Assembly: GCA_017994375.1 (NCBI GenBank)
Contig: JAGOLA010000002.1
Coordinates: forward strand, 1 to 54,982
DNA length: 54,982 nt
Direction of reading: 5' to 3'
DNA from: Candidatus Omnitrophota bacterium
Lineage (GTDB): Bacteria > Omnitrophota > Gorgyraeia > Duberdicusellales > 4484-171
Within the stretch, counting starts at the first letter, position 1. Each line of letters opens with the position of its first letter. Of the stretch, positions 1 through 23,469 are shown piece after piece. Both the position numbers and the translations under genes were made by a program. The notes below the pieces were generated by a model. It had not been told where the DNA came from and searched no databases. It saw nothing but the letters and a program-made list of their open reading frames with translations.

Positions 1-3000
1 CATATTGGCCGTTTACTACTGCTCTTTGTAATTTACCCTCATCATTTGTCTCCATACGATAACCCATAACCGGATGTTTATCGAATAAATGCGGAGTAGA
101 AGCTTCTCGCCAATCAAAGTGGTTACGTGGATCTAGCCACTTCTCAATAGCTGAAATTCCCGGATCAAATACGGCTTTGGTAGCACCATAAGTAATAGCA
201 CCGGTCGAAGCAACATCTATAGCTAAAGGAGTTATAGTAGGAAGCTTTCTTAAACCATACCCTACTAAAGCACCAGTGCCAAAATAAGAAAGAGCATCCC
301 AGCCGTTATTAATATCCCCTCTTAAAGCTCCAATGCCTACCCCAGCAAGACCAGTACCAGTAGTATAGAAAGTTTTAAATTTAGCGGTGCTGGTAAATTC
401 AGAAACTTTATTTATCCAACCAGCTTCGCTAATGGAAGTACGCATTCTATGAGCAAAACTTAAACCGCCGATACCGGCTATGGCTAAACCGGCATTAGCA
501 ATATAATTTCCGGCTATATTAGCAATATCATTATCGGTAAAATTATCGACGCTCTTACCTATATAATACATTCCGCTTCCAGCACCGACCAAAGTAAGCG
601 GATGGTGGATAGCAAATTGAACTGGTCTGGTTTGTTCTAAACCTCTTATAAAAGCTGAATCGGAAATCTTTCCATAACCAGCACCAATAGCATTAAACAT
701 GGTTGATAAACCTATAGAAGAAGTAGCAAAAGTATCTAAACTATAGGCAGTGGTATAAGCTGATTGGCTAATAGCTTTAAATTGATCATCGCTGCCTAAG
801 GTTGGCATAATAAAACCAAGGCCAGTATTCCACTTCATAAAACTGGCTGCTCCTTGGTGAGCCTGGGCTGTAAAGTAACCTACGCGCTGTAAATTACTTA
901 ATGTAGAGTAAGGCATTGTACCACCCTCAAAGTAAGCTATACGAGTAGGTGAACCATTAAACATTACCTTCTCGCGAGATATGCTAATCGGAGCAACGGT
1001 TGTACTTCTTATGTTATCCCCTAGGTATTTAAATCCTGCTGTAGCACCCATTACGCCACCAACTAATCTACCCCACTGAGCTGGACCAGCCATACGGTTA
1101 GGATCATTTAACTGATTACCAAGTTGCTCTAGTTGTTTCTTAATTGAAGCTAAACTAAGAACTTCTTTAAAAGTTTCAATTGGTCTAGATAAGCCTAAGG
1201 CTGTATAGCTACCGCTGGCAGCTTGAGTAAAGGTATCTGTTGCAGATACTAGCATAGATGTTGGGAAGGCAGCTATAGGTGCGTAATCGTTCATAAATTT
1301 ATCAAACTTAACTCTTTCAGTATTACTTCTAATAGCTGAAATCTCTGGTAAATTATTATTGATACCGAACCATTTTTCAGCAATATTGCCAGCTGCCGAA
1401 ACTATATTTCGGCCGGGATTCATAAAGATACCGGTAATTCCACTGACCGGTCCAATAATTTCATGTAAAGGTTTAGATATCACACTACTGTTACCCGAAT
1501 AATTTAATTCGGTCTTAGCTAAAGCAGTAGAACCGGCTAAGAAATTTAAAGGCTGATTAAGACCAGTGATACTAATAAATCTTGTCGCTATTGGAGAATT
1601 ATTTATATTAAAAAATGGCCTAACTGGTTCAGCCACACGTTGCACTAAATCTTTGGTTCTAGTAATAAAAGTAGGAATTTTTTCTTGGGAAGCTACTACA
1701 GCAGAAGTACTTTTAGGTATTGCCCAGTTACCAACTCCGATAATACTACGAATAGCAAGTCCGCCCAAAGCACCATCAACATAATTCATGGGGCGGCTAT
1801 AACCACCATCTAAGAAATGAGGAGCGGCAATCGCGCCAATAGTAGGATAAGTTATCCAAGACCATCCTCTAGTCGGACTTAAAGCTGGTCCAATATACTT
1901 AAAAGTATTTCCAATTAATGGTATATCTCTACCGTATTGGATAAAACTTCTTGTAACTTGCCCTAAACCATTAAAAGCGCCAGTAAAAGCATAAGTAGTT
2001 CCGACATTAAATAAAGATTCGCCTAAATGCATTATTCGACCTTCAGTAGCAGCAGTACCGACATGCCCTAAAGCTAAATTAGCAGTTGCCAAACCTCTAG
2101 TAACAGGATTTTGAGGAATTGCTAAAGCACCAGCCCCAACTCTACTCCACCAACTTGTAGTTGTAGCTGCCGTATTAGCTAAACCAGTAGCACTACCAAG
2201 ATACCCAGCGATTTTTGCTCCAGCTGCTGGTAAAGCAAAAGACACACTAAGCACAGTAGATTCAGTAGGAGTTAAGTATTGTCCTGGAGTAACTAAATTT
2301 CCTCTAGCGTCATACCCGGCAGTTTGATAATACTTCAGTTCATCTGCAGCTAAACGAGTAACTCCAGCAACCGCAACTGTTGTCCGGCCTAAATTTATTC
2401 CTGTTACTTTACGAGTAGCGTATAACTCTAAAGCAACTTTACCTACTTGACCAGCTGACATTAATCCATACTCTAAACCGCTGCTCCATCTATTTCCTTC
2501 TCTCCACTCTTTTTTAGCATGTTCTTTAGAAAGACTAAAACCGATACCAAACTTCCAATCATTACCCATGAAAGCATAAGGTCTTCCCTTTTCATCTCTA
2601 ATTTCAAATTCCCAATCGCGCCAATCTGCAGAATTATTAGTATTCTTGATTCTTAAATCATCGCTAGCCCTCATTGCATTTAAAGCCCAAGCATTAGTAG
2701 TAGTTCTGTCCCAAGTAAATAATTCATTTAAATCTCCTGCAACGCTATTTGCAGCATATAACCACATGAAAGCTTCATGTGCTCCTGCTGATCTTCGCCA
2801 ACTATCACTATCAAATATAGCGCCGATAGCTGAGTCGACTCCCCACATTATGGCATGGACAGGGGTGCTTAAAGTATTACCTGCAAAATCATGTACTACC
2901 CATGATAATCCGTCGCCAACAACTCCGGCTACAGCGCCTCCAGTTTGACGTATTGGATGCCTTAGATGTTCGGGCACAGCAGCATGGAATATCGGGATAT

Positions 3001-6000
3001 CTGTTACCCGATAATCTGGAGTGGTACCAATCCAGTTATTCATATTCTGGAGGACATCTGACATAAAAGGATTACGTTGAATTTCAGGATTAGCCATTAA
3101 GCCAGCGATGGTTGTCGAGACTTTTTCTTTTTGTTCGTTATATTGAGCAGCTACACGTTTATATTCATCTCTTAATTGAGCTCTAGTCATTCCTAATTCA
3201 TTAATTGCTCTATCAGCATATTGCGGAGACATAAGTTGATTAGCAATAATATTCAAATTACGTTCCATTCTCTGCAATTGCACTTGGGTTTCAGCTACTT
3301 GTAAAACTGGAACTTTATTAGCCAGTCTTTGCAAAGCATCGACTTTTAAACCATCAGTATAAATAGCACCGGGTATACCCATAGAAGGTTGATCAGCTTT
3401 CGCAATTATCTGCTCTCTTTGTTCTAAGAATTTAACTGGGTCGTCAAAATTTAAAACTGCTTGAGCCTGATATAAAACTCTTAACTGGTTAGCAACTCTT
3501 AATTGCTCTTCACGAATGCTATCATCTCTATTATGAAGTATCCCTCGATACCAAGGCTGGCCGGCTAAATCACCATTAAGGTTTAATTCTCTAGACCAGC
3601 GTTGATTAAGATCAGCTAAACGTCTTTCTAAACCGCGTATCTCCTGCGGTAATCTTTCGGTACTATAACCCATTTCTCTTACCTTTTGAGCGTATTCGAC
3701 TCTAACTTGTGCAATTTGTTCTTGAAGTTGCCGAGGGGTCAAGACATCTTCGAATCTAATATTTTGCTGGGCAGTATTACCGATAGCATCGAATTTTATT
3801 ACATTGACTTTACTAAATTGTAAATGATAATTCGCAATATGTTCATTGTTATATTTAGGATTAGTTACCACTTTAAATACCTTATCTCCCGTAAAACCAT
3901 TGTTAGTAATTGCGTAATTTCTCAAATCCTGGGCAATGCTACCGGAGAAATTATAATTAAAACCCGAAATAAAATTAGAGGCTTTGCCGGAAAGTAAGCC
4001 GTCAGCGCCAAGAGTAATAGTAGTAAGGGCTCTTGTCGTAAAGGGGATATTCCTTGCAATTTGTTTATCAACTCCGGCCTCTTTATTCTGAGAACCTTGA
4101 TATTGAGAAGCTTGAACAAATAAGGGTTGTTTTCCTTCTGAAAGAGTAATGCTGATAGAATTACCCAGGCGCTCTAAGCCAATAACATTGCGCCATTGGC
4201 CAGGTTCGGTCATAAAGCGGGCATTATCAAATATTTGTTTTATATTGCCTTGGATATTACCTAGTTTATCCCAACGAATAGCATTGGCGAATTCACCCAC
4301 TGCTTTTTGGCCAACAGGATCTCTAAAAGTAACAGTAAAACGGTTGTTATCTAAAGGCGTTAAATAACCATTATGAGCGGTAATAAGCTGGCCAACGTTA
4401 TTAAAAATAATAGTTTCTTTATCTTGAATAGTTAAACCACCGTCAGCTAAAGACTTGCCAGCAGAAACTTGTCTAGTAAACCCTAGGTCTCCTTTAAAAC
4501 CTTGGCTGGTTATAGCATAGTTTCTTACATCCTGGGCAATGCTACCGGAGAAATTATAATTAAAACCCGAAATAAAATTAGAGGCTTTACCGGAAAGTAA
4601 GCCGTCAGCGCCAAGAGTTAAAGCTTGCATTGGACGAGCGGTAGCAAGATTATCTAAAGGTTGATAATAACCGGTTTTAACCTGATTAAAGAATTCTTCG
4701 TTAGTGGCTGCGGGAGGTTTAAGTAATTCTGATTGGATACTTTGTCTAAATAACGGCTGTTTTCCTTCTGAAAGAGTAACGCTGATAGAATTACCCATCC
4801 GCTCTAGACCAACAACATCTCGCCATTTCCCAGCTTCGGTCATAAAGCGGGCTGATTCAAATACCTTATTAATATCGCCGCTAACAGCACCTTGTTTATC
4901 CCAACGGATGGCATTAGCGAATTCACCAATGGCTTGTTGGTTAGCAGCATCTCTAAAAGCAATAGCAAATCTATTACCATCTATAGGTTGAATATAACCA
5001 GCATGAAGTTCAGTAGGTTGTCCTAAAGAATTAAAGTGAATAGTTTCATTATTAATAAAGGTCAAACCGCCACTAGCTAATAATTTAGAATTTCTATCTA
5101 CTTGAACGCTAAGAGCAGTATCGCCACTTATCTTAGAAACCACTGTTGCATTTCTAAAATCACCTGATAAAGAAGGCGAAGAACTTAAAGATGAAAATAG
5201 AAGATTAGTCTGTTGAATTCCATCGGCAAAAACAAATTCACCCTCTTTATGCAAAGTCAGAGTACGTGGGCCGATATTAATTGCGTTACCAAGAGAATCT
5301 ATATTAGAGTTGGTTTGGAATTCAGGAGCGAAAGCTCGATTTAAAACTAAAGGATTATCTCCGCTGAACTGGATAAAAGGAGTCTTACCGCTATCGGCAA
5401 TACCTTGTTTAGTGATATTAAGTTGTACTACTGGCTGATTAACTTTATCAAAAGGAGTAGCTAATCTAAAAGCACTATCAACCTTAAAAGAGTTATCTAT
5501 AAATTGTATTCCGCTATCAGTAGCTACACCCCAGAAATTGACTCCGTTTAATAGAACTCTATTCTCAACAATTTTACCAGTTACTGGATTCTGTATAAGA
5601 GATACGGAATCAGTATAGATATTATTCCAACCTGATACTACGCCCGGAGTACTTAACTTCTGAATAGCCCAACCTTCCATATTCAAAGCAACATGGCTTC
5701 CGGCTAAACTTTGTAGTTTGGAGTTATTGCCGCCAATTTGTTCCGGTCTAGCAGCAGCAATAACTTCCGAAGCAATATTCCTATTGCCATCAAAAGCTAC
5801 CGCAGCTACAAACTTATTCATATCTACAGTATTAAAACCGGTATTTGCAAAGTTATTCTGTGCACCTACGAATTGATGGTTAGCATTATGAAACATTGGT
5901 GAAAACGATAAGGCATCTTGGTTAAGCTGTTGCGGTCCGGTTATTTGAAGCGGTATAGAAGCAAAATGACTCTTATCAGTTAAGGCTGTAGAAATATAAG

Positions 6001-9000
6001 TACTGTTGGCTAATTGGGCGGTACTAAAATTGCCTCCACTGAAAGGATTGTTAATTCCGCCAACACCACCAGAAGTAACTGACTCGGAAGAAAAGATAGC
6101 TGTAGTCCCGCTATTGATTCCTATTTTAGAAAAATCAAAAGTTTGGGCATTAAAAGCTAAAGTTCTATTGTTAATTACCTGAACAACTTTTAGAGCTTGA
6201 GTTTCAGGGGTAAAGTTTTGGTTAAGTTCCCAAGGTTTTCCAAAAGTAGTACTATAGGTTAATCCCGGTAATTTTCCTGCCCCAAGATTATCTTGTTGGA
6301 TGGCTTCTAAATTAGTTTTAACTCCCAAAGGCGATAAATCTTGTAATTTAGTGGTTCTAAAGAAAAGCGGATCAGCGCCTTCTATAGCTAATGGCCCATT
6401 AACACCAATTTGCATTCCTGCACCCCAGAAAGAATTGTGTTCTCCATACATATGTATAGAGTTAGCTGGGCTAACATTTTGGCTAAACCTAGCTATTGCT
6501 CCTACTCCGAAATTATTACTGACTATGCCTTGATGTACATAATTATCCTGACTAACTACTTTAGCTAAATCTACGTTAGGTAAAACCCAAGATAATTGCC
6601 CTTCCAATCTTCCCGTATTAATATCATTAGTAGGACTTAAAGTATAATTGGCTTTCGAAAAATATAACTGGGGTATTGAAGAGGCCCCTTGATTACCACC
6701 GGCAGAAATAGGCCCCATACCAGGCAAAGCCTCCAGAGAAACGCCCTGACCTAAAATCTCTAAGGCCTGAGCACCTTGGAGAGTATGGGTAATACGGGCT
6801 TGGTCTATAATAGTGTTCTGGCCGCCGCTTTCGATTGCTCCTCTGGCACTGTGCAAACCTTGAAGAGGAGCATAAATATAACTTCCATTTTTAAGAGCAA
6901 TTAAACTGGTTTGAACAGTACCACTTACTGAATTTGGTTTTACTTCTGGACCAATATAAGGAAGTTCACCCGGCGCTAAATTGTAAGTTCCGGGTTGACC
7001 TAAAAGAATCATAGCAAGATGATTATTGGTAGGAACTGTATCTTGCCCGATAGCTCCTCCAAAGTGGAAAGTCCTATCTAAAAAGACATTTTGAGGATCT
7101 TTAACTTCGGCGCGGGAAGTCTGAACTCCTTCGTTATTTATATAGCTTTGTTGGACATAAGATATGGGGTTATTTTGAATATGATTGCGCCAAGCAACAG
7201 CTGTAGCAGCACTATCATTCCAATTGCTAAGAGTTCCGAATGATTTCTCGCTATATGAAGTAGGTAAACCGACAAAGCTATCTTTTAAATAACTCTTTTC
7301 AAAAGCAACTACAGCATCGCCTTCTTTGGCTTTACCAACTATAACTTCTTTTCCTTGCTTTTCATCCCAGACAGAAATTACGCCTACTCTAGCTAGCCAA
7401 TTCTGATTATCACTGATATATTGCGCTCTAGCTTTAGGATCTGCTATACCGCTCAAAGTTGTTTGAAAAGCAGCATAATCTTGTTGAGCTTTGCTATCTT
7501 TAAAAAACTTTTCATGCATCCAATCGTTAGTAGCAACACCAAGGGCTGTAGAGCCAAAATTAGCTCCGGGGTTTAAGACTGAAAGGCCGTCTTCAGAGCT
7601 AAACCAAGGCCTTTCTGCCCAACTTAATTCTTCGCCTCGGGCTTGTTTCGCAGCAGCCTCTCTATTATTTAAAGCACTACCGTTTATATAATCTAAGCCG
7701 GTACCAAGCACAACCCCTACCGCACCACCACTAGATTTTAAGCCCGTAGCTATTGTTCCAAATACATCTTTCCAGAGTTGGCCTTTATCATCCCAACGGC
7801 TTGAAGCTTGAGCCTCCGTAGAAGGAGCTGGGACAGCAGAAGCAGCAGTGGTTTGCGTTGTAATCGTTGGAGTAGAAGTAGAATTAGCTACGGTATTAGA
7901 AGATCTATCCATATAAGTAGTAGTGCCGGATGTAGCACTAGGATAAGCAACACCTGAAGAAGCAGCGCTTTTACCCATATTTTCAGACATATTACCAACA
8001 GCGCTATGGATTGAACGAGCAATGCCTCTGGCCTCTGTTCTATCGGTAACTAAGTGCGAAGGAAAAATACCATCTGCGGTTTCTTTTATAGCCTGGAATT
8101 TAGAGTTAGAAGAAGATTCGAATCTATTGCTCGAAGCATTCGCAGCTGTTGCCTGTGGCTGAGAAGCAGCAGGACTTGATGCTGACGGCTGATTAACATA
8201 TACTCCTGAAGGGCTACTACTAGCTGGCCTAGAAACATTACTCTCATACCAATTCTGGCTTACCGGTCCAAAAGCCCGGCCGTCATTAGTTACTCCACCA
8301 TTTTTTACATAGTTATCATAGCTACCTGGGCCAGGAGTGTTGTTTGAAAAACTCTGAGATTGCCCTGAAGCTGCTGTAACAGGAGCAGAATAATTAGTGT
8401 TACTATAATTCTTAGGTGCTGTCTGGGCCTGAGAAGCAGAGCTTACTGCTGGTGCTTGATTAACATAGATACCTGGCCCAGAAACCGTCTGAGAAACTTG
8501 GGCTGAAGCTACTGGTTGAGAATAATTATTAGTAGAAGGGCTCGGAGAGTAAGAAGACGATATATAGCCTACTGCAGTATCAGCGGCTTTAGATATTGCT
8601 CCACCGGTTGCCCTATCGACAGTGCTAACTACGGCACTAGTAGTAGGAAATACTACTGATAAAGTGGACTTCACTGCTCCCCAAGTAGAAGAGCTTTGGG
8701 AGTCAGTGTTACCGACCGAAGTCGGATACTGATTCGAAACTGCTGAAGTATTAGAAGAATAATTAGCGCCAGTATAATTCGAAGACGCTGCTGCTGGCTG
8801 AGAAGTAGGAGTTGATGCTGACGGCTGATTAACATATACCCCAGAATTAGGGTTGCTATAATAATTACTAGCTGGCCGAGAAACATTACTTTCATACCAA
8901 TTCTGGCTTACCGGTCCAAAAGCCTGACCGTCATTAGTTACTCCGCCATTTTTTACATAGTTATCATAGCTACCTGGGCCAGGAGTGTTATATTGTTGTA

Positions 9001-9508
9001 CGCTAGATCCCGCATAAGGAGTAGCAGTCGGAGTAATATTGTAGTTACTAGAATTACCGCTGCTAGTAGCTGGTGAATAAGTGTTATAGCCATAATTGTT
9101 GGCTGGCGAATAATTAGCCGAATAAGTAGTGGTCACATAGTTATAATAATTTTGATAGTTGTAATTGTTATAGCCGTAATAGTTGGAATTATACTGGTAG
9201 TCTGAACTGCTGCTATTGGAACTGGAAGAAGAAGAGGAATAATTCGAATCCGAAGATAAATCATACATCTCGGCATAAAGTTTGTTTAAAGAAAACAAAG
9301 AGCTCAAAATTCCTTTTGGCTTGGAAGGCAAAGGTGAAAAATATCCTTTTGAGGCAGAATAATAAGCCGGATTACTCGCTGAAGCTATATCCTGGTAGAC
9401 AAAACAGAAAAGCACGATAAAAGCAATTACGCGCATCCAAGGTTTAAAACTTGGACTGTGTAATTTGTTGAAAACTTTTAATTCTAAATTATCTATGTTA
9501 TCGTGCAT
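1..9508 (-). CDS. Giant secreted or surface protein. Only the N-terminal 3,169 codons are in the window; the ORF runs off at position 1 with no stop.
   Basis: The minus-strand frame starting at ATG 9508-9506 has an in-frame TAA just upstream at 9514-9512. Read by eye, it stays open to position 2. The supplied track lists only ORFs of 100 aa or less between 1 and 9500, which fits one unterminated ORF rather than fragments. The N-terminus reads MHDNIDNLELKVFNKLHSPSFKPWMRVIAFIVLFCFVYQDIASA, which looks like a signal peptide or membrane anchor. I recognised no known domain. Confidence 0.85.
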   Translation of the reverse strand, partial: MHDNIDNLELKVFNKLHSPSFKPWMRVIAFIVLFCFVYQDIASASNPAYYSASKGYFSPLPSKPKGILSSLFSLNKLYAEMYDLSSDSNYSSSSSSSNSSSSDYQYNSNYYGYNNYNYQNYYNYVTTTYSANYSPANNYGYNTYSPATSSGNSSNYNITPTATPYAGSSVQQYNTPGPGSYDNYVKNGGVTNDGQAFGPVSQNWYESNVSRPASNYYSNPNSGVYVNQPSASTPTSQPAAASSNYTGANYSSNTSAVSNQYPTSVGNTDSQSSSTWGAVKSTLSVVFPTTSAVVSTVDRATGGAISKAADTAVGYISSSYSPSPSTNNYSQPVASAQVSQTVSGPGIYVNQAPAVSSASQAQTAPKNYSNTNYSAPVTAASGQSQSFSNNTPGPGSYDNYVKNGGVTNDGRAFGPVSQNWYESNVSRPASSSPSGVYVNQPSASSPAASQPQATAANASSNRFESSSNSKFQAIKETADGIFPSHLVTDRTEARGIARSIHSAVGNMSENMGKSAASSGVAYPSATSGTTTYMDRSSNTVANSTSTPTITTQTTAASAVPAPSTEAQASSRWDDKGQLWKDVFGTIATGLKSSGGAVGVVLGTGLDYINGSALNNREAAAKQARGEELSWAERPWFSSEDGLSVLNPGANFGSTALGVATNDWMHEKFFKDSKAQQDYAAFQTTLSGIADPKARAQYISDNQNWLARVGVISVWDEKQGKEVIVGKAKEGDAVVAFEKSYLKDSFVGLPTSYSEKSFGTLSNWNDSAATAVAWRNHIQNNPISYVQQSYINNEGVQTSRAEVKDPQNVFLDRTFHFGGAIGQDTVPTNNHLAMILLGQPGTYNLAPGELPYIGPEVKPNSVSGTVQTSLIALKNGSYIYAPLQGLHSARGAIESGGQNTIIDQARITHTLQGAQALEILGQGVSLEALPGMGPISAGGNQGASSIPQLYFSKANYTLSPTNDINTGRLEGQLSWVLPNVDLAKVVSQDNYVHQGIVSNNFGVGAIARFSQNVSPANSIHMYGEHNSFWGAGMQIGVNGPLAIEGADPLFFRTTKLQDLSPLGVKTNLEAIQQDNLGAGKLPGLTYSTTFGKPWELNQNFTPETQALKVVQVINNRTLAFNAQTFDFSKIGINSGTTAIFSSESVTSGGVGGINNPFSGGNFSTAQLANSTYISTALTDKSHFASIPLQITGPQQLNQDALSFSPMFHNANHQFVGAQNNFANTGFNTVDMNKFVAAVAFDGNRNIASEVIAAARPEQIGGNNSKLQSLAGSHVALNMEGWAIQKLSTPGVVSGWNNIYTDSVSLIQNPVTGKIVENRVLLNGVNFWGVATDSGIQFIDNSFKVDSAFRLATPFDKVNQPVVQLNITKQGIADSGKTPFIQFSGDNPLVLNRAFAPEFQTNSNIDSLGNAINIGPRTLTLHKEGEFVFADGIQQTNLLFSSLSSSPSLSGDFRNATVVSKISGDTALSVQVDRNSKLLASGGLTFINNETIHFNSLGQPTELHAGYIQPIDGNRFAIAFRDAANQQAIGEFANAIRWDKQGAVSGDINKVFESARFMTEAGKWRDVVGLERMGNSISVTLSEGKQPLFRQSIQSELLKPPAATNEEFFNQVKTGYYQPLDNLATARPMQALTLGADGLLSGKASNFISGFNYNFSGSIAQDVRNYAITSQGFKGDLGFTRQVSAGKSLADGGLTIQDKETIIFNNVGQLITAHNGYLTPLDNNRFTVTFRDPVGQKAVGEFANAIRWDKLGNIQGNIKQIFDNARFMTEPGQWRNVIGLERLGNSISITLSEGKQPLFVQASQYQGSQNKEAGVDKQIARNIPFTTRALTTITLGADGLLSGKASNFISGFNYNFSGSIAQDLRNYAITNNGFTGDKVFKVVTNPKYNNEHIANYHLQFSKVNVIKFDAIGNTAQQNIRFEDVLTPRQLQEQIAQVRVEYAQKVREMGYSTERLPQEIRGLERRLADLNQRWSRELNLNGDLAGQPWYRGILHNRDDSIREEQLRVANQLRVLYQAQAVLNFDDPVKFLEQREQIIAKADQPSMGIPGAIYTDGLKVDALQRLANKVPVLQVAETQVQLQRMERNLNIIANQLMSPQYADRAINELGMTRAQLRDEYKRVAAQYNEQKEKVSTTIAGLMANPEIQRNPFMSDVLQNMNNWIGTTPDYRVTDIPIFHAAVPEHLRHPIRQTGGAVAGVVGDGLSWVVHDFAGNTLSTPVHAIMWGVDSAIGAIFDSDSWRRSAGAHEAFMWLYAANSVAGDLNELFTWDRTTTNAWALNAMRASDDLRIKNTNNSADWRDWEFEIRDEKGRPYAFMGNDWKFGIGFSLSKEHAKKEWREGNRWSSGLEYGLMSAGQVGKVALELYATRKVTGINLGRTTVAVAGVTRLAADELKYYQTAGYDARGNLVTPGQYLTPTESTVLSVSFALPAAGAKIAGYLGSATGLANTAATTTSWWSRVGAGALAIPQNPVTRGLATANLALGHVGTAATEGRIMHLGESLFNVGTTYAFTGAFNGLGQVTRSFIQYGRDIPLIGNTFKYIGPALSPTRGWSWITYPTIGAIAAPHFLDGGYSRPMNYVDGALGGLAIRSIIGVGNWAIPKSTSAVVASQEKIPTFITRTKDLVQRVAEPVRPFFNINNSPIATRFISITGLNQPLNFLAGSTALAKTELNYSGNSSVISKPLHEIIGPVSGITGIFMNPGRNIVSAAGNIAEKWFGINNNLPEISAIRSNTERVKFDKFMNDYAPIAAFPTSMLVSATDTFTQAASGSYTALGLSRPIETFKEVLSLASIKKQLEQLGNQLNDPNRMAGPAQWGRLVGGVMGATAGFKYLGDNIRSTTVAPISISREKVMFNGSPTRIAYFEGGTMPYSTLSNLQRVGYFTAQAHQGAASFMKWNTGLGFIMPTLGSDDQFKAISQSAYTTAYSLDTFATSSIGLSTMFNAIGAGYGKISDSAFIRGLEQTRPVQFAIHHPLTLVGAGSGMYYIGKSVDNFTDNDIANIAGNYIANAGLAIAGIGGLSFAHRMRTSISEAGWINKVSEFTSTAKFKTFYTTGTGLAGVGIGALRGDINNGWDALSYFGTGALVGYGLRKLPTITPLAIDVASTGAITYGATKAVFDPGISAIEKWLDPRNHFDWREASTPHLFDKHPVMGYRMETNDEGKLQRAVVNGQY
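3890..5077 (-). repeat. In-frame tandem duplication inside the giant ORF: two units of about 200 aa.
   Basis: 88-bp cores at 3928-4015 and 4531-4618 differ at one base, giving a period of 603 bp. Both units encode ...GGLT..ETI.FN..GQ....GY..P.D.NRF...FRD...Q.A.GEFANAIRWDK.G...G.I...F..ARFMTE.G.WR.V.GLER.GNSIS.TLSEGKQPLF ... LTLGADGLLSGKASNFISGFNYNFSGSIAQD.RNYAIT. The plus-strand shadow ORFs 4149-4367 and 4704-4991 mirror the same repeat. Confidence 0.85.
8158..8990 (-). repeat. Two-copy repeat of about 185 bp inside the low-complexity N-terminal part of the giant ORF, with a period of about 640-648 bp.
   Basis: Segments 8158-8342 and 8797-8990 are near-identical. Both encode NTPGPGSYDNYVKNGGVTNDG[QR]AFGPVSQNWYESNVSRPAS...SGVYVNQPSAS. 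Confidence 0.8.
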
Positions 9509-9590
9509 AAATTAAAATAAAATTATAAATATAAAAATGGCCCCTCTTCTTTTCTCCCCAAATTGTGCGTTGGCTTTTTCTATTCTCATA

Positions 9591-9635
9591 AAATAAAAAC
9601 CGGATTGCCTTCTCTTTTGAGATTCGGCAACCCGG
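9591..9635 (-). terminator. Intrinsic terminator forming the expression platform of the riboswitch at 9591-9735.
   Basis: On the RNA, CCGGGUUGCC (9635-9626) pairs with GGCAAUCCGG (9609-9600) over 10 bp including one G-U. A UUUUUAUUU tract follows (9599-9591). The 5' arm of the stem is also the 3' strand of the aptamer. Confidence 0.7.
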
Positions 9636-9735
9636 CTATCCGTTTAGATAAAACTAAGTTGTAGTAGAGCTTCCTAAATTAGGACCCGTGGCTTTGCGCC
9701 CTCCGCTTACGCTGGAGTTTGCCTTTATCGACCCC
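9591..9735 (-). promoter_or_regulatory. c-di-GMP-I (GEMM-I) riboswitch in the 5' leader of the giant ORF.
   Basis: The minus-strand RNA reads AAAGGCAAACUCCAGCGUAAGCGGAGGGCGCAAAGCCACGGGUCCUAA...CGGAUAGCCGGGUUGCCGA. This has the GEMM-I hallmarks: GGCAAAC, a hairpin capped by a GNRA loop (GUAA), the GCGCAAAGCC core, CCUAA, and the 3' AGCCGGGUUGCCGA segment (compare the Vibrio cholerae Vc2 aptamer). A terminator follows. Confidence 0.85.
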
Positions 9736-9760
9736 AATTCTTAGCTGCTAAACTACAGTA

Positions 9761-9789
9761 AATATAACATAATATAATATATAAGTCAA
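9761..9789 (-). promoter_or_regulatory. Sigma70-like promoter for the riboswitch and giant ORF transcript.
   Basis: On the minus strand, TTGACT (9789-9784) is followed by a 17-nt spacer and TATATT (9766-9761). This lies about 25 nt upstream of the aptamer. Confidence 0.55.
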
Positions 9790-9979: not shown

Positions 9980-10843
9980 TTACATACCTACTCCACTAAA
10001 CAAGTCTCCCTTTATAAATTTAATTAGAATCGGCCCGGCAACAATAATAAGAATTACTGGTAAGATGCAAAAGATAAGCGGAATAAGCATCTTAAGCGGT
10101 GCTTTCATAGCTTGGCGTTCTCCTCTATGAAAACGTCGCATCCGAGTATCCTCAGAAAGAATCTTAAAAGCCTCTTCCACTGGAGTTCCCATGCGATCAG
10201 CCTGAATTAAGGTCCTTACAAAAGAGGTAACATCTGGTATCTCTAATCTTTTAGACATATCTCTTAAAGCTTCGGTGCGGGATTTTCCGATATTTATCTC
10301 TTTTAAAACTACTGAGAGTTCTTCAATTAAAGGATTAAACCTAACTTTATCAATAACCCATCTTACCGCTGACATAAAATCTAACCCTGCTCCCACACAC
10401 AAACCTAATAAATCTACTGTCTCTGGCAATATCCTTACTATAGCATATTTTCTTCTATTGATAGCAGACTTCATCATAATACCGGGCAAGATAAGTCCAA
10501 AAATAGCAGCTGATATCAACCATATCGGCTTCTCTAAGCCAAAGACATATAGTAAAAGCGGAAAAACAATAGCGCATATCTCCCGCATTCCAAGAAATTC
10601 GGCCGGGGTTAATTTCCACCGAGATAATGTTAGTTTACTGCGTAAAGCATGTTCCAACTTAAGGATTTTTAATATTACCTTATTTAGAGGAGTAAAAACT
10701 TTTAATAAAGGCATAAGCAGAGGATTTTTATCTTCTTTGACTTTTTCTTTAAAAACCGAAATAGTATCCGGCTCTTTAGGAACTAAACCAACAAAGATAA
10801 AAATGAAGGCTGCAATCAAAAATAAATATAGAAGAATAATCAT
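9980..10843 (-). CDS. tadC: TadC-like pilus platform protein (T2SS-F/GspF-type domain).
   Basis: 287 aa, polytopic. The T2SSF-like core reads ...LPETVDLLGLCVGAGLDFMSAVRWV...RTEALRDMSKRLEIPDVTSFVRTLIQADRMGTPVEEAF... It overlaps the upstream tadB-like gene by 4 nt. Confidence 0.8.
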   Translation of the reverse strand: MIILLYLFLIAAFIFIFVGLVPKEPDTISVFKEKVKEDKNPLLMPLLKVFTPLNKVILKILKLEHALRSKLTLSRWKLTPAEFLGMREICAIVFPLLLYVFGLEKPIWLISAAIFGLILPGIMMKSAINRRKYAIVRILPETVDLLGLCVGAGLDFMSAVRWVIDKVRFNPLIEELSVVLKEINIGKSRTEALRDMSKRLEIPDVTSFVRTLIQADRMGTPVEEAFKILSEDTRMRRFHRGERQAMKAPLKMLIPLIFCILPVILIIVAGPILIKFIKGDLFSGVGM

Positions 10844-11682
10844 ATCTTGACTCTCCCAAATAAAATTATTAAGCCAATACCTACGGTCTGAAGAATTAAA
10901 GCTATTAAAAGCAATAATCTTCCCAATTCATCCTGCCACATAATATCGAAGTGAGCCGGGTCCATTTTACGAACGATAAAAAAGAATACTGGGCCGATAA
11001 GAGAAATAATAATGGCTTGTAGCCGAGTTTGTAAAGTCAAAGTGGCTACCAACTCTTTTAACTTAAGCCGGTCTCTGATAGTTTCTACTAAACGGGAAAA
11101 TACTTTAGTTAAATCTCCTCCGGTTTCTCGAGCCACCATTATAGCTGAAGTAACTAAGGTTACTTCTTCTGAGCCCATCCTTTTATCCAATCTTAGTAAA
11201 GCTTCTTCTAAAGTTACTCCCACCTTTATTTCTCTGCTTACTAACGAAATCTCTTGGCTTAAAGGAGCGCTGGTTTCTTCTACCACTACATCAAAAGCTT
11301 GTATTAAGGTTAACCCTCCTTTTAAACAGCTATTCATAATCATAAGGCCGTCTACTAACTGGTTAATGAACCTTTTCTTTCTTAGGTTCTCCATAAATTT
11401 TACTAATAGTAAGGGACAAAGTACTCCTACAATCAAAAATATAATTACCACCAATACCTTTCGGGTAAAGATATAAGATAAAGCACCTAACACCAAGGGC
11501 AATCCAATATAGAGAAGAATAAGAGTTTTTTTCTGGACAAAAATGAACATCTCTTCGAATTGAGAAGCAGTTCGCATAGCTTTTTTTTGCTGGCTTTCTT
11601 CCCATTTTTGAAGTAGAAAACCTATACCGTAATAAGAAATTACTACTAAGGAAAATAAAAGAAGTATGTAGGCTAGGATCAT
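10840..11682 (-). CDS. tadB: TadB-like pilus platform protein (T2SS-F/GspF-type domain).
   Basis: 280 aa. The core reads ...MNSCLKGGLTLIQAFDVVVEETSAPLSQEI...LEEALLRLDKRMGSEEVTLVTSAIMVARETGGDLTKVFSRL..., flanked by TM segments. Confidence 0.8.
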   Translation of the reverse strand: MILAYILLLFSLVVISYYGIGFLLQKWEESQQKKAMRTASQFEEMFIFVQKKTLILLYIGLPLVLGALSYIFTRKVLVVIIFLIVGVLCPLLLVKFMENLRKKRFINQLVDGLMIMNSCLKGGLTLIQAFDVVVEETSAPLSQEISLVSREIKVGVTLEEALLRLDKRMGSEEVTLVTSAIMVARETGGDLTKVFSRLVETIRDRLKLKELVATLTLQTRLQAIIISLIGPVFFFIVRKMDPAHFDIMWQDELGRLLLLIALILQTVGIGLIILFGRVKI

Positions 11683-11692
11683 TTAATGCTTA

Positions 11693-11860
11693 CTAGTTGG
11701 GGTCAAACTGTTCTTCTAAGCCAAAAGTATCGGCTGCTTTTTTATAACTTCCTTGAAGGCGCCTTTTGATATAACCGGACATCGCTAAGAAAACAGCAAT
11801 AATCACCACTATTAAAATAGCATAAACAAGGATTACTTGCGACTGTTTACTTGTTCGCAT
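11693..11860 (-). CDS. Small Flp-like pilin paralogue of 55 aa, not in the ORF track, with Val in place of the conserved Glu5.
   Basis: ATG at 11860 and TAG at 11693-11695. The translation is MRTSKQSQVILVYAILIVVIIAVFLAMSGYIKRRLQGSYKKAADTFGLEEQFDPN. It aligns with the ...KAQSTLEYALLITVVIAVLLSMQAYIKRGMQGKFKD... paralogues at 15772-16113 and elsewhere. It overlaps the end of the upstream gene by 14 nt. Confidence 0.55.
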   Translation of the reverse strand: MRTSKQSQVILVYAILIVVIIAVFLAMSGYIKRRLQGSYKKAADTFGLEEQFDPN

Positions 11861-12665
11861 GATAATAAATTCCGATTATAGTGTAAGTATCTTTTAATAA
11901 CTCTTTCTCCGCTTCGGACTTAATATCCTTCAAGTAATAAGAGCTAATAAAAATATAATAAGCCTGATTATTATTTTTAAAAACTAAATTTTTAGCATTG
12001 GCGAACGGGGTCTCTGCTATATTCTTACTCTGCTCACCAGAAATTTCCGGGCATACTGGACAAGCCGAACTGATATCTACAGTGTCAAAATTACTTTTTT
12101 GTTCCGATAGTTTCCAGCCTAAAGAAGGCATTCTCCTAAGATAAAAATCTTCTACCTGCTTCGGGTTTTCTTTGGTTTTATAGGCAAAATAATGTATTCC
12201 TTTAGTGAAAGAATTATAGGATATTAATTCAGCGCTGGAAGGGTAAGGTGGCTTAAAGCTTGGTTTTTTATCCGGAGTAAAACATCCTTCTGGAGGGCAA
12301 GCTTTATTATCATTGCCTTTGGTTAAATCTCCGGTAATAACTGAATAAGAAGTTTCTTTCTTATTTAGCGAAGGCATAAAATTTAAGCTTAACATCATCC
12401 CTTTCTTAAGGTAAGAGTTAGGGGAAGCTTTATCTATTGGTTGCCAACCTTGTTTTGATAATCTCTCTTTATAAAATTGGCTAATTTGGCTTTTAGAAGA
12501 GTTGGAAGTATAGTGATATATTACGGATTCTCTATCTACTTCGGCAAATTTTTTAATCTCTTTTTTAATCAATTTGGAGTTAGGATAATAAGGTAAATTA
12601 GCGACTTCCGCCAAGGCTTTAAAAGATACTAAACAAAAAATAACTAAAATAATTTTTTTAACCAT
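11847..12665 (-). CDS. Secreted protein of unknown function with an internal two-fold duplication.
   Basis: I moved the start from the track's 12782 to ATG 12665, giving MVKKIILVIFCLVSFKALAEV, a typical signal peptide. This also removes the overlap with the upstream gene. The halves resemble each other: YYPNSKLI...YHYTSNSSKSQISQFYKERLSKQGWQ against PYPSSAELI...FAYKTKENPKQVEDFYLRRMPSLGWK. Confidence 0.6.
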   Translation of the reverse strand: MVKKIILVIFCLVSFKALAEVANLPYYPNSKLIKKEIKKFAEVDRESVIYHYTSNSSKSQISQFYKERLSKQGWQPIDKASPNSYLKKGMMLSLNFMPSLNKKETSYSVITGDLTKGNDNKACPPEGCFTPDKKPSFKPPYPSSAELISYNSFTKGIHYFAYKTKENPKQVEDFYLRRMPSLGWKLSEQKSNFDTVDISSACPVCPEISGEQSKNIAETPFANAKNLVFKNNNQAYYIFISSYYLKDIKSEAEKELLKDTYTIIGIYYHANK

Positions 12666-12684
12666 TGTCTTTATTCTTATTACT

Positions 12685-14010
12685 TTACTTCCAAAAGTCA
12701 ACTTCAATAATCGCAGCATCGTGTTCCCAAATAGGCTCGCAACTATAACCGTCGTGACGGGAACAAATTTGTCCTCTATCATTATAATTAAAAGTAGCTC
12801 GAGTGGAACTTTTTATATTAGGATATTGGGTAAGCCAAAGCTCCGAAGAACGCTGGCCGACATTACCGGCATGAGACTGAACAGTCTTGGCTTCCACCTC
12901 TCTATCATGCACTATATCGTCAATCCAGGCAATAATAAGCTGTGGTTCATTATTGGCAGTATAAAGAGTGGTTGTGCTATCTTTGTCGATATCTAGGCCT
13001 ATCCAGGCTCTAGTACTCATATCATAAGCATTATCTATAGAACTTAAGGCTCTTTGAAGGTGCATTATTGCCATCTGACAATTCTGCTGCCAACAAACAC
13101 AGCAAGGCCACCAACCAGCTAAGCAGCATGGAACGCAACTACAAGCCGCGGCTAGATACCCTTGAGCGTGGCGTAAATTATCAATAGCATCTTCGGTAAA
13201 AAATATCACTCGCTCTAAAGTATCGGTTTCTTCCGGATAAGTCATATTAGTGTGACGAATCTTATACTCCCAGATAGGATCAATGCAAATTTGCCCCCAA
13301 ACTTCATGTCGCCGGCCGGAGTAATCATTCCAGATAAAATTCTCAAACTTGCAATTTTCTACTGTCGCAGTAGTGAAACTATCTACCTTACTATAAAGAT
13401 AATGCTTATCGCTATCTCTAATCTTTACTGCTATACCGCTGTTAAGAAAAAGAAACTTATATCCGGCAGCCAAAGCAGTATAGTATAAATCAAACTGGTT
13501 AGGTTGATCTCTATGGACGATATTTCTTACCCGGCGGTAAAAATCCTGCTGGTTAAAGAAAAAACTGGGCACTATCTGCCATTGAATTTGGCGGGTTTCG
13601 GCCCAAAAAAAACGCAATAGTCTATCGGCCTCAATAGCCCAATAAATAGCTTCGCAAGGGTTCGGACAAGCTAAATTAAGGGCACCTACGGTTTGGTGGC
13701 GGGCTAAAAATAAAATATTCCAAGAGTGCTGAAAATGCCTAAAAGCTTCCCAGTTGAAACGCCGGTAATTTATCTCAAATATGCGGTTAGCAAAAGCTAC
13801 GTAATTGAAAGCATAGGCTAAGGGCGAAGCAGCAGCTAAAGCTCCGCCGTCAGTAGCATTGCCACTGTAGGTCTTAGTTCCGGCGATCTTTCCGATATTT
13901 ACGCTGATTAAAGCTGCAATGAGGATAACTAGTATTAAAGCAAAGAAAAAAGGGGCAAGCTGTCCTTTATGAAATGAAGACTTATTAAAATAACTATTAT
14001 TTTTAAACAT
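12685..14010 (-). CDS. TadG-like pilus-associated protein with a pseudopilin-like hydrophobic N-terminus and a Cys/Trp-rich cluster.
   Basis: About 441 aa. The N-terminus ...KGQLAPFFFALILVILIAALISVNIGKIAG resembles the TadG/TadE-type N-terminal helix. The motif AACSCVPCCLAGWWPCCVCWQQNC is encoded at about 13075-13155. The track start at 14013 is GTG; the ATG lies at 14010. Confidence 0.5.
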   Translation of the reverse strand: MFKNNSYFNKSSFHKGQLAPFFFALILVILIAALISVNIGKIAGTKTYSGNATDGGALAAASPLAYAFNYVAFANRIFEINYRRFNWEAFRHFQHSWNILFLARHQTVGALNLACPNPCEAIYWAIEADRLLRFFWAETRQIQWQIVPSFFFNQQDFYRRVRNIVHRDQPNQFDLYYTALAAGYKFLFLNSGIAVKIRDSDKHYLYSKVDSFTTATVENCKFENFIWNDYSGRRHEVWGQICIDPIWEYKIRHTNMTYPEETDTLERVIFFTEDAIDNLRHAQGYLAAACSCVPCCLAGWWPCCVCWQQNCQMAIMHLQRALSSIDNAYDMSTRAWIGLDIDKDSTTTLYTANNEPQLIIAWIDDIVHDREVEAKTVQSHAGNVGQRSSELWLTQYPNIKSSTRATFNYNDRGQICSRHDGYSCEPIWEHDAAIIEVDFWK

Positions 14011-14032
14011 CACCCCTTTACCTTCAGGTTAA

Positions 14033-14278
14033 CTAAAAATGGGTCTCTTCTTTGGTAAGCTCTTCGGGTGCGTAAATTGGCCAGACTATATCTTTCCAGC
14101 CTCCTCCGCCAGGATACCTGTTAGGTTGACCAGCTTCCTCTCTAGTGCTGCCAAATAAAGGCTGACGCTTAGCAACCTGGCGATTACCCCAAGTCCACAT
14201 AGCTATTATACTAAAAAATAACGATAATACTACCAAAAAAGCAATAGTTATTTCTATAGTAGTTTGGGATTTCTGCAT
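14033..14278 (-). CDS. Small pseudopilin-like protein of 81 aa.
   Basis: The N-terminus MQKSQTTIEITIAFLVVLSLFFSIIAM has the same S/Q...E(+5) leader plus hydrophobic helix as the pilin array. Confidence 0.55.
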   Translation of the reverse strand: MQKSQTTIEITIAFLVVLSLFFSIIAMWTWGNRQVAKRQPLFGSTREEAGQPNRYPGGGGWKDIVWPIYAPEELTKEETHF

Positions 14279-14285
14279 TTTTATC

Positions 14286-14924
14286 TTATTTATTTACTGA
14301 AAAACTTCGGGCTTTGCCGCTAGAACGACTCTGCTCCACGGTAGTAGCTCCTTTTATATAATAAGTCATCTCTTCAGCTACGGCTGAACCTCTGGTGCTG
14401 CTTATATTAGCCGGATCTTCCGTTAAATTCAAGCTCTCGGAAACTGCCGTAGCATATTCTCGGTCTACTCCGGTAACATCGGCATCCGGATCTAACACTA
14501 CATCACCTTGATCGTTAATCTCATAGATAAATTTTCTTTCGGGATCATTTTCTTCATCGGTATATATATCCAAGGTGCCTCCGGTAGCTCCAAAACGCCA
14601 TTGATCAGTTGACTCTACCTTAGTATATTTAGTTATCAAAGGCACAGCCCAATGGACGTAGCCGGAAGCGCTACGCAGGATTTTTTCACCGCGTAACGGT
14701 ACCTCAACATCGGCTTTACGGCTATCATTTATCGAATCGTGGCTTAAGATGACGTTTCTGTCGTGAGATTTTTTAAGCGAGCGGCGAAAATTCTCCATTA
14801 AAGTATATTGCTCGCTATTCATTTTCTGAATAAAAGTAACCAAAAAGCCGAAAGCAATCAATATTACTACTCCAAAAAGACCGGCTTCTACCAATCCTTG
14901 GGCTCTTTTATGAATACTTCTCAT
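14286..14924 (-). CDS. TadE/TadF-like pseudopilin of 212 aa.
   Basis: The N-terminus MRSIHKRAQGLVEAGLFGVVILIAFGFLVTFI has Glu at +5 after the putative A/Q cleavage site, followed by a globular domain. Confidence 0.6.
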   Translation of the reverse strand: MRSIHKRAQGLVEAGLFGVVILIAFGFLVTFIQKMNSEQYTLMENFRRSLKKSHDRNVILSHDSINDSRKADVEVPLRGEKILRSASGYVHWAVPLITKYTKVESTDQWRFGATGGTLDIYTDEENDPERKFIYEINDQGDVVLDPDADVTGVDREYATAVSESLNLTEDPANISSTRGSAVAEEMTYYIKGATTVEQSRSSGKARSFSVNK

Positions 14925-14942
14925 TTTTTTACTAACCTTTGC

Positions 14943-15371
14943 TTAATTAACACTAACTAAATCCCACTGTAAATTCCACTCAATATACTGAGTATCAGGA
15001 TAAAGAATAGCTGGCGGTTTGACAGCATAATCTACTACATCCCTTACGCTTCCCGCTTCTGATCCTACCGGGATATCATAATTATACCAAGCATCATCAT
15101 CGGTAGTAATAGTTAAGGTATTGCCCCCTTCATTCTCGAACTTATCAGAAGCTAAAGTATCGATTTGCTTATGCTCTTTGACTCTACTTCCATCGGCATT
15201 GTTTCCGGCCATATTAGGATAATAGCCAATAAAAGCATCGGATAAATCCTTTACTTTGGCTTGGGTTCCCCGCCGAATAAAGGGTTGCATAGCTAGCATT
15301 ACACCAATAATTATAGCAATCACTACGCCATACTCTAGTATGGCGTTGGCTTTTCTATTAATACTTATCAC
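14943..15371 (-). CDS. Flp/pseudopilin-like protein of 142 aa.
   Basis: The N-terminus ...NRKANAILEYGVVIAIIIGVMLAM shows the EY motif plus a hydrophobic helix. The track start is GTG. Confidence 0.6.
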   Translation of the reverse strand: MISINRKANAILEYGVVIAIIIGVMLAMQPFIRRGTQAKVKDLSDAFIGYYPNMAGNNADGSRVKEHKQIDTLASDKFENEGGNTLTITTDDDAWYNYDIPVGSEAGSVRDVVDYAVKPPAILYPDTQYIEWNLQWDLVSVN

Positions 15372-15411
15372 CCCTTAGATTTTTAAGACCCTAACGCTAA
15401 ACTCTTAAATA

Positions 15412-15720
15412 CTACTCTCCAGAGAGATCGCCTATCATCATAATCTCACTATGAGTAGTTGCTCCGATATCCGCGCTATACTTATCTTTATCATAATATT
15501 CGGCAATTGCCATGCTGGAATTCTTGGCTACTCCTCTAAGTAAAGTATTATTATAAGAGTATTCTTCTCCTAACTGGTCAATATTCTGCTTAACTCCTCC
15601 CTGTATGCCTCTCTTTAAATAGGCCTGCATAGTAAGCAAGGCTGCTACTGTTACTACTATAATCAAAGCATACTCCAAAGTGTATTGAGCTTTTCTGTAA
15701 GTTAAGCCAGATTCTCTCAT
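15412..15720 (-). CDS. Flp-family pilin paralogue of 102 aa.
   Basis: The translation begins MRESGLTYRKAQYTLEYALIIVVTVAALLTMQAYLKRGIQGG. A Shine-Dalgarno-like GAGG lies upstream. Confidence 0.7.
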   Translation of the reverse strand: MRESGLTYRKAQYTLEYALIIVVTVAALLTMQAYLKRGIQGGVKQNIDQLGEEYSYNNTLLRGVAKNSSMAIAEYYDKDKYSADIGATTHSEIMMIGDLSGE

Positions 15721-15771
15721 AACTTAAACTACCTCTTCGAATACTTGCCTCTTATAACTTAACCTAGGTGT

Positions 15772-16113
15772 TTATTCCCACTCAAAATTAACTGGGAACG
15801 ACTCTTTGTGTAAAGGCTTAATATCTTGATCAGTAGTAGTATTCTGGTTACCCGAAGTTACTACATTTAATCTGGTATTATGCCCTTCATTATAAGTTTC
15901 AGTAGTGGTGCTAGTAGTATCGAGATGGTAAGTGCCTTGGGTTAACCCCGGTGAATACTGATCACCAATTTGATCAGTTACATCCTTAAATTTACCCTGC
16001 ATACCTCTCTTGATATAAGCCTGCATGCTAAGCAGCACTGCAATTACTACTGTTATAAGAAGCGCATACTCCAAAGTACTTTGCGCTTTTCTTGGTTTAA
16101 GTAACATCTTCAC
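15772..16113 (-). CDS. Flp-family pilin paralogue of 113 aa.
   Basis: The translation begins MKMLLKPRKAQSTLEYALLITVVIAVLLSMQAYIKRGMQGKF. An AAGGAGGTG Shine-Dalgarno sequence lies upstream. Confidence 0.7.
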   Translation of the reverse strand: MKMLLKPRKAQSTLEYALLITVVIAVLLSMQAYIKRGMQGKFKDVTDQIGDQYSPGLTQGTYHLDTTSTTTETYNEGHNTRLNVVTSGNQNTTTDQDIKPLHKESFPVNFEWE

Positions 16114-16144
16114 ACCTCCTTATAAAATTAGTTTCAACTCCTTC

Positions 16145-16489
16145 TTACTGGTTTACATTGGAATCAAAGCTGGTAGTAGAATCTGCTGTCTTAGTCCAAA
16201 AATCGGGCTGACCTTCGCTTTCTACAAAAATTTCACTAATGTCTTGGTTAGCTGTTTGATTCCGGTTTTTATAACCAGCTTGTGGTTCATATTGGAACCC
16301 TTGTCCTAAAGTTACTCCTTCCGGTGTAACTTGGCCTGATACCTGGCTTAAGGCAAAATTAGCATCATACATCTTAGCTTGGATTGCCCTTCTTACTTCA
16401 TGCTGCATACCCAAAGCCGCAGCTACTACTAAAGAGAGAAGTATGGCATATTCGGCTGTTGACTGTGCTTTTCTTAATTTTCTTAACAT
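16145..16489 (-). CDS. Flp-family pilin paralogue of 114 aa.
   Basis: The translation begins MLRKLRKAQSTAEYAILLSLVVAAALGMQHEVRRAIQAKM. An AGGAGGTG Shine-Dalgarno sequence lies upstream. Confidence 0.7.
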   Translation of the reverse strand: MLRKLRKAQSTAEYAILLSLVVAAALGMQHEVRRAIQAKMYDANFALSQVSGQVTPEGVTLGQGFQYEPQAGYKNRNQTANQDISEIFVESEGQPDFWTKTADSTTSFDSNVNQ

Positions 16490-16511
16490 CTTTTATCACC
16501 TCCTATCCTAA

Positions 16512-16709
16512 TTATTCACCAGTATAAAGCCCGCCTCCGGCCTTATCTAAAAACTGCATCGAATGAGCATCAATTACGTCGGCGCTGTCAGCAAACATGT
16601 TATCTACTGCTGGTCTTATAACCTCTCTAGCGGCAAAAATTATCGCGGCTACTATCGCGGCTAAAATAATTACGTACTCTAAGATGTTTTGAGATTTTTT
16701 CTTTAACAT
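16512..16709 (-). CDS. Flp-family pilin of 65 aa.
   Basis: The track start at 16718 is GTG. ATG at 16709 lies 9 nt downstream of an AGGAGG sequence and gives MLKKKSQNILEYVIILAAIVAAIIFAAREVIRPAVDNMF... Confidence 0.7.
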   Translation of the reverse strand: MLKKKSQNILEYVIILAAIVAAIIFAAREVIRPAVDNMFADSADVIDAHSMQFLDKAGGGLYTGE

Positions 16710-16732
16710 TCCAATCACCTCCTTTATCCTTT

Positions 16733-16876: not shown

Positions 16877-16880
16877 CTTC

Positions 16881-17342: not shown

Positions 17343-17354
17343 CTTTTTCTCCAT

Positions 17355-20137: not shown

Positions 20138-20139
20138 AA

Positions 20140-23456: not shown

Positions 23457-23469
23457 CTTGCTCCTCCGT

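Follow-up and report, generated by a model that had tools for sequence, protein, structure and literature searches.

A predicted c-di-GMP ON riboswitch controlling transcription attenuation ahead of a giant surface-protein gene in Omnitrophota

Along the minus strand of the window (the whole stretch of 54,982 nucleotides analysed here), genes for a secretin, a TadZ–CpaF-like ATPase and a second T2SSE ATPase are followed by a transporter/arsenic block and then by a candidate c-di-GMP-I riboswitch (referred to hereafter as the second riboswitch); a pilin array, a TadE/G-like gene and two T2SSF genes come next, beyond which lie the riboswitch considered in most of this text and a giant open reading frame (ORF). 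A giant ORF preceded by a T2SS/T4P/Tad-like secretion locus, as found here, is one of the marks of an Omnitrophota giant-gene locus (West-Roberts et al, 2023). The intervening block (17667–25790) encodes an ABC-2 exporter, an ArsP-type permease, a SAM methyltransferase, a DsbD-like protein and an SBF-family transporter; unrelated to its surroundings, it splits the secretin/ATPase half of the Tad locus from the pilin half that the second riboswitch would gate. The features on which the argument depends are as follows, where R1 denotes a covariance model built from the 3′ strand of the aptamer and the terminator, with which 24 leaders were aligned.

2..9508, minus strand: giant ORF, more than 3169 codons, open to the contig end; N-terminal membrane anchor with the motif FKPWM[RK]VIAF..FCFVYQD
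9541..9559, minus strand: G-rich element GGGGAGAAAAGAAGAGGGG, between terminator and start codon
9590..9599, minus strand: U-tract UUUUUAUUUU, directly after the terminator stem
9600..9609, minus strand: terminator 3′ arm GGCAAUCCGG, 10/10 pairs with 9635..9626; R1 match of 53.5 bits at 9641..9591
9610..9625, minus strand: terminator loop GAAUCUCAAAAGAGAA (from RNAfold), enclosing a UCUC/GAGA mini-hairpin and beginning with the four nucleotides that complete the P1 3′ strand
9626..9635, minus strand: shared strand CCGGGUUGCC, comprising P1b 3′ strand, junction G and C, and the first P1 nucleotide; also the terminator 5′ arm
9622..9732, minus strand: c-di-GMP-I (GEMM-I) aptamer, matched by RF03167 and RF01051; positions mapped from the cmscan alignment
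9761..9789, minus strand: promoter-like TTGACT-N17-TATATT with TG (extended −10); best match of the scan, 10/12, a consensus match only
17353..17505, minus strand: second c-di-GMP-I riboswitch of shared-strand design (RF01051 46.1 bits, R1 50.8 bits), aptamer at 17505..17394

No Pfam domain was found in the 3169-aa product of the giant ORF (cut by the contig end), an empty result that fits the published description of giant-protein N-terminal regions without recognizable domains (bioRxiv 10.1101/2023.11.21.568195). The globular part of the product has homologues within frames of 7,440 and 5,811 aa from two genera. Translation from Met25, which would yield an ordinary signal peptide, was considered and rejected, the preceding residues (FKPW) being conserved in homologues. 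In one relative (locus L039, G023:C1:734500–742500), the conserved N-terminal module is a separate 184-aa ORF overlapping the start of the 7,440-aa frame; the module is 400–460 aa long in some other genomes, and elsewhere it heads single frames of 5,811 to 15,520 aa. The separate short ORFs could be split genes, frameshifts or assembly errors.

From the predicted promoter, transcription would start some 20 nt upstream of the aptamer; TTGACA-N17-TG(G/T)TATATT-like elements stand ahead of many orthologous leaders. We saw no convincing terminator in the interval (9790–9980, minus strand) that separates this promoter from the second T2SSF (tadC-like) gene, which ends at 9980; a transcript extending out of the pilus operon would then have to cross the two riboswitch terminators one after the other. 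At the distal end of the leader, 82 nt separate the U-tract from the ATG at 9508. There is no Shine–Dalgarno sequence close to this start codon, and the G-rich element sits too far from the ATG to act as an ordinary one. A GGGGAAAGGGG-like G-rich element lies 55–90 nt past the aptamer in nine of the 19 giant-ORF leaders (that of the window and those of loci L043, L051, L054, L055, L056, L057, L058 and L061), and this conserved element may represent a further regulatory layer.

A cmscan search of the whole window returned two matches to the c-di-GMP-I clan, one ahead of the giant ORF at 9732..9622 on the minus strand (RF03167, 62.8 bits, E = 1.6e-12, gathering score 59) and one at 17505..17394 (RF01051, 46.1 bits). 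RF01051 also matches the first of these over its full model (positions 1–87), at 61 bits against a gathering score of 35. The sequence elements from which an ON switch was originally predicted are all in place on the minus strand (CCGGGUUGCC, GGCAAUCCGG, UUUUUAUUUU, GGCAA at 9723..9719 and GUAA at 9710..9707). In the aptamer, P1 is formed by GUCG (9732..9729) with CGAAU (9626..9622), making three pairs. P1a is composed of a two-pair base (GC with GC at 9697..9696) and a hairpin at 9717..9701 whose GUAA cap is a GNRA loop, correctly assigned to this first hairpin in the original prediction. P1b pairs 9693..9683 with 9640..9629, has a 30-nt distal insertion and includes receptor-like CCUAA and GGAUAG elements that are invariant in five aligned leaders. 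The helix proposed to close the aptamer, between GGCAA and UUGCC, is absent from the GEMM-I consensus structure and from every predicted fold of this RNA; in the consensus structure, GGCAA supplies the junction nucleotide equivalent to G20, the base of P1a and unpaired adenines.

In the crystal structures of c-di-GMP-I aptamers, nucleotides G20, A47 and C92 (Vc2 numbering) contact the ligand. By alignment to the model, the equivalent positions in the giant-ORF aptamer are G (9723), A (9695) and C (9627); C9627 aligns with C92 of Vibrio Vc2, which pairs with one of the ligand guanines. The Rfam consensus lines of the two competing families differ at one conserved core position, CGC-G-AA in RF03167 versus CGC-A-AA in RF01051. 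Despite the score of 62.8 bits, we rejected membership of RF03167 (whose name “GGC” we take to refer to the three specificity positions), since the giant-ORF aptamer reads CGC-A-AAGCC and has A, not G, at the position that defines the variant. The 1.8-bit lead of RF03167 probably arises from the presence of P1 in that model and from its tolerance of the P1b insertion. We therefore read the aptamer as a predicted canonical c-di-GMP binder, for which the label “GGC variant” would be misleading. Eight GGDEF matches in the genome indicate that c-di-GMP can be made in the cell.

The same labelling extends well beyond this locus. Under Rfam clan competition, about half of the Omnitrophota aptamers considered here go to RF03167 (59–71 bits against the gathering score of 59), the loci concerned being the window (9622–9732) and L046, L051, L054, L057, L058, L060, L061 and L062. 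This is an annotation trap, in that canonical aptamers are filed as the “GGC” variant when every pattern-matched one has A at the position in question. An ON architecture that answers to a ligand other than c-di-GMP, either as a member of the RF03167 class or as a cGAMP-type GEMM-Ib, would draw on these labels, given that RF03167 scores just over its gathering score and 1.8 bits above RF01051 here and that about half of the orthologous aptamers are assigned to it; a further aptamer of this genome, on contig C104, has A at the G20-equivalent. To our knowledge, the ligand of the GGC variant has not been established. Against the first version stands the A at the variant position, here and in 19 of 19 pattern-matched related leaders, all of which also have the C; the cGAMP-type signature is excluded by the combination of G at the G20-equivalent and C at the C92-equivalent wherever the match is anchored on the aptamer core. 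We consider a different ligand improbable.

The strand CCGGGUUGCC belongs to two structures. Within the aptamer, CCGGGUU (9635..9629) provides seven nucleotides of the P1b 3′ strand and pairs with AAGCC-A-CGG at 9693..9686, G9628 and C9627 (the C92-equivalent) are junction nucleotides, and C9626 is the sole true P1 nucleotide inside the terminator stem. Downstream, the same strand pairs with GGCAAUCCGG in a stem of 10 bp (nine Watson–Crick pairs and one G–U) that runs into the U-tract UUUUUAUUUU, as had been predicted; this hairpin alone has a folding energy of −21.4 kcal/mol (z = −6.8 against 1000 shuffles). The 5′ arm corresponds to aptamer model positions 67–76, and 10 of the 20 stem nucleotides are thus aptamer nucleotides. 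The earlier proposal of one strand with two partners holds for the downstream partner, with the correction that upstream it is the P1b 5′ strand, among other elements, and not GGCAA that competes; similarly, the terminator does overlap the aptamer, but the overlap attributed to P1 amounts to C9626 alone, the remainder being P1b 3′ strand and junction.

When the 86 nt that follow are shuffled by mononucleotide, a 10-nt complement to the arm arises in 0.12% of cases, a figure that does not yet require the U-tract. A simple terminator scan with a loop limit of 8 missed the hairpin solely on account of its 16-nt loop. When another 20 kb of the window was scanned crudely, terminator-like sites were not in excess over shuffles (12 versus 15.4 expected), giving no independent support for intrinsic termination in this genome.

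Because aptamer and terminator share 9635..9626, both cannot form at once, and ligand binding should prevent termination. Folded without constraint, the leader (9754..9590) has a minimum free energy of −56.0 kcal/mol in a structure that holds the terminator, with probabilities of 1.0 for the terminator pairs and 0.0 for those of P1b; the best fold keeping the consensus aptamer pairs reaches −33.9 kcal/mol. The terminator fold is therefore some 22 kcal/mol more stable in a nearest-neighbour model that accounts for neither tertiary contacts nor ligand. With the terminator favoured by so wide a margin, the decision must be kinetic, taken during transcription, and not one of equilibrium; as read-through would rest on kinetics beyond the present computation, the switch might have a narrow dynamic range.

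Of 61 relatives, 55 carry GEMM-I aptamers. Searching with the N-terminus of the giant-ORF product (FKPWM[RK]VIAF..FCFVYQD) identified 20 loci in Omnitrophota metagenome-assembled genomes, with frames headed by this conserved region reaching 15,520 and 14,792 aa. A same-strand GEMM-I aptamer lies upstream in 19 of the 20 (in tandem in one case), and the remaining locus has only 116 nt of upstream sequence. In all 20 aptamers of these 19 loci, the best hairpin with a U-tract begins 12–16 nt inside the aptamer, and in the 21 orthologous leaders tabulated the stem gives way to a U-rich tail. The 3′ arms vary yet stay paired (GGCAAUCCGG, GGUAAUCCGG, AGCAGCUCGG, GGUGAUUCGG and GGUAACCCGG, besides others).

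Across the 24 leaders aligned with R1, 98.8% of the 260 terminator cells form standard pairs, and four pairs, accounting for 14 cells, have compensatory changes on both sides. None of 500 shuffles matched the observed paired fraction, the number of compensated cells or the covariation score, and four of the 500 reached four compensated pairs. As the alignment is fitted to the structure, it is somewhat favourable to pairing; registers with the partner slid by one to three columns offer a fair check, and in these 13–58% of cells pair. Folding both alternatives and aligning leaders for covariance had been suggested together with the original prediction, and the two outcomes (folds that exclude one another, and near-complete pairing of the terminator) both bear it out. 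Of 401 Omnitrophota genomes drawn from across the phylum, 112 have an R1 match, representing 99 of 282 genera.

This pattern of substitution weighs against the possibility that the hairpin is a constitutive attenuator or RNA-stability element, at which termination is insensitive to ligand, with the aptamer acting mainly elsewhere (on translation, Rho or RNase access). Such an arrangement would accommodate the far greater in silico stability of the terminator fold and the 82 nt, with a conserved G-rich element, that lie between U-tract and start codon; Bc1 from B. thuringiensis (PMC11218506) demonstrates that a long, dual-acting expression platform is possible for c-di-GMP-I. The 3′ arm, however, always complements the aptamer 3′ strand and tracks its substitutions, including the four compensated pairs, which would be unexpected if the folds did not compete, and no platform sequence sequesters the start-codon region. 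We accordingly give an insensitive terminator a slim chance.

Overlap of this kind is a specific design and not a by-product of carrying an aptamer, as indicated by leaders in the same genome and in relatives whose terminators stand apart. In further GEMM-I leaders of the lineage, the terminator (typically CCCAUAG...CUAUGGG plus a U-tract) lies entirely downstream of the aptamer, and in the leader on contig C104 of the same genome, aptamer and terminator coexist in the minimum-energy fold. An OFF switch, in which ligand would favour termination, has precedents in OFF-type c-di-GMP-I leaders of this lineage and in Cd1 of C. difficile (PMC6366702), but is very unlikely here, as the OFF-type terminators of the lineage lie outside the aptamer and can coexist with it, 10 of 20 stem nucleotides are aptamer nucleotides in the present case, and a third (anti-antiterminator) element is absent.

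The C104 leader merits description in its own right. Its aptamer (C104:7254–7359, minus strand; 1501–1606 of locus L001), the third GEMM-I aptamer of the genome, scores 67.7 bits and has A at the G20-equivalent (AAUAGCAAAC), the known signature of 3′3′-cGAMP-type GEMM-Ib riboswitches. With its terminator apart from the aptamer, this leader would be OFF-type or constitutive. The ORF downstream encodes a TPS secretion domain (a two-partner-secretion exoprotein), and a GGDEF gene is found on the same contig.

We conclude, with a probability of roughly 0.85, that the 5′ leader of this Omnitrophota giant surface-protein gene contains a transcription-attenuating c-di-GMP riboswitch of ON type. What the analysis shows is that the aptamer matches its family, that it overlaps the terminator, that the two folds exclude one another in silico, and that the design is conserved and covaries; the identity of the ligand (from sequence), ligand-dependent read-through and the promoter are what we infer. 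The original prediction of an ON switch is upheld on the same grounds, namely exclusive folds, conservation and covariation in 24 leaders, together with the recurrence of the design at the Tad pilus operon.

The mechanism that we envisage is as follows. Transcription would begin from the promoter at about 9789..9761, and the GEMM-I aptamer (9732..9622) would be made first. Bound c-di-GMP would hold the P1b 3′ strand, the ligand-pairing C9627 and P1, such that the emerging GGCAAUCCGG (9609..9600) could not nucleate on ..UUGCC; no terminator would form, and polymerase would read through into the giant ORF. When ligand is absent, GGCAAUCCGG would displace the P1b 5′ strand, generating the 10-bp stem plus U-tract and a stop at about 9590–9595. 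For this to operate, the aptamer would have to fold and bind before the 3′ arm is transcribed, 16 nt past the end of the 5′ arm. As the 3′ arm emerges, its leading nucleotides (GG, followed by CAA) would need to pair with C9626, C9627 and GUU, the very nucleotides held by P1 and ligand, and binding would thereby remove the nucleation site for strand invasion.

The second riboswitch repeats the shared-strand design ahead of the Flp pilin array and the tadE/G, tadB and tadC genes (17342..9980; Pfam Tad and T2SSF matches). Its terminator arms, CCGGGCUACC and GGUAGCCCGG, are followed by U7 and differ from the giant-ORF copy by two fully compensated pairs. With both switches, high c-di-GMP would turn on pilus and giant protein as one programme, plausibly for attachment to surfaces or prey cells. 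An adhesive or sessile function, as first suggested for the giant protein, is a reasonable reading of this context; for Omnitrophota, the corresponding activity would be to attach to host or prey cells or to attack them.

One comparable system is the pbuE (ydhL) adenine riboswitch of B. subtilis, the textbook case of an ON switch whose aptamer doubles as antiterminator. The likeness lies in a terminator 5′ arm taken from aptamer 3′ strands, the lack of a separate antiterminator helix and kinetic control; aptamer and ligand differ. The closest relative with a tested response is Bc2, ahead of cap (encoding a collagen adhesion protein) in Bacillus thuringiensis BMB171, a c-di-GMP-I ON switch for which termination and read-through were demonstrated in vitro and in vivo (PMC4933901). 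Both leaders combine a class I aptamer with an intrinsic terminator ahead of a gene for a large surface adhesion protein. The comparison covers aptamer class, terminator, ON sense and gene type. The present switch differs in its phylum, in that its ON response is predicted, and in that its gene belongs to the Omnitrophota giant-protein family and follows a Tad-like locus with a switch copy of its own. Class II c-di-GMP riboswitches of C. difficile, Cdi-2-4 ahead of pilA1 and both Cdi-2-3 and Cdi-2-1 ahead of adhesins, likewise act as ON switches by read-through (PMC6366702). They follow the same logic, whereby high c-di-GMP leads to attachment (via type IV pili and adhesins), with an aptamer of another class and fold and in Firmicutes. 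The mechanism is already known from Bc2/cap; the novelty resides in the phylum that hosts it, in the family of genes concerned and in conservation across that phylum.

Omnitrophota giant genes of the Archaeovorin and Dockerin types are likewise preceded by a T2SS/T4P-like locus, and giant-gene loci have been tied to c-di-GMP by the PilZ genes that follow them and by GGDEF domains within the giant proteins (bioRxiv 10.1101/2023.11.21.568195). The locus described here shares with them the phylum and the order of elements, a Tad/T2SS-like locus and then a giant ORF with a domain-less N-terminal region; the ORF here differs in being known as a 3169-aa fragment that extends to the contig end. The word “riboswitch” is absent from that preprint and from a 2026 preprint on Omnitrophota long proteins (10.64898/2026.06.07.730766), and a full-text literature search for Omnitrophota together with riboswitch returned only an unrelated paper, in two versions, on c-di-NMP receptor proteins (ComFB).

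For riboswitch biology, the case is a clean but ordinary one of a class I aptamer acting as its own antiterminator; it is the organism that makes it valuable. The Omnitrophota, nanobacteria that have not been cultured, are believed to use their giant genes in attaching to other cells or attacking them. As to when these genes are expressed, a conserved ON riboswitch offers a concrete, testable answer with c-di-GMP as the signal. The decision would be taken within the first ~165 nt of the transcript, with the neighbouring pilus operon wired to the same signal. We put forward, tentatively and at a little under even odds, that c-di-GMP-gated attenuation is a checkpoint used throughout the phylum to commit the cell to transcribing the giant genes (the frames with this leader reach 15,520 aa) and the adjacent Tad-like pilus/secretion apparatus. 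If so, a very costly transcript would be begun only in the high-c-di-GMP (attached or predatory) state, and feedback could exist through the GGDEF domains and PilZ partners reported for giant-gene loci. The leader is small enough to be assayed in vitro or in a laboratory host, with no need for culture, and could be a marker for the gene family in fragmented metagenomes.

The single tandem arrangement among the homologous loci is found at L057 (WJJJ01000033.1), where two ON-type c-di-GMP-I riboswitches (2591–2696 and 2747–2853), each with its own shared-strand terminator, precede a giant-ORF homologue; a pair in this configuration would impose a steeper, two-checkpoint response.
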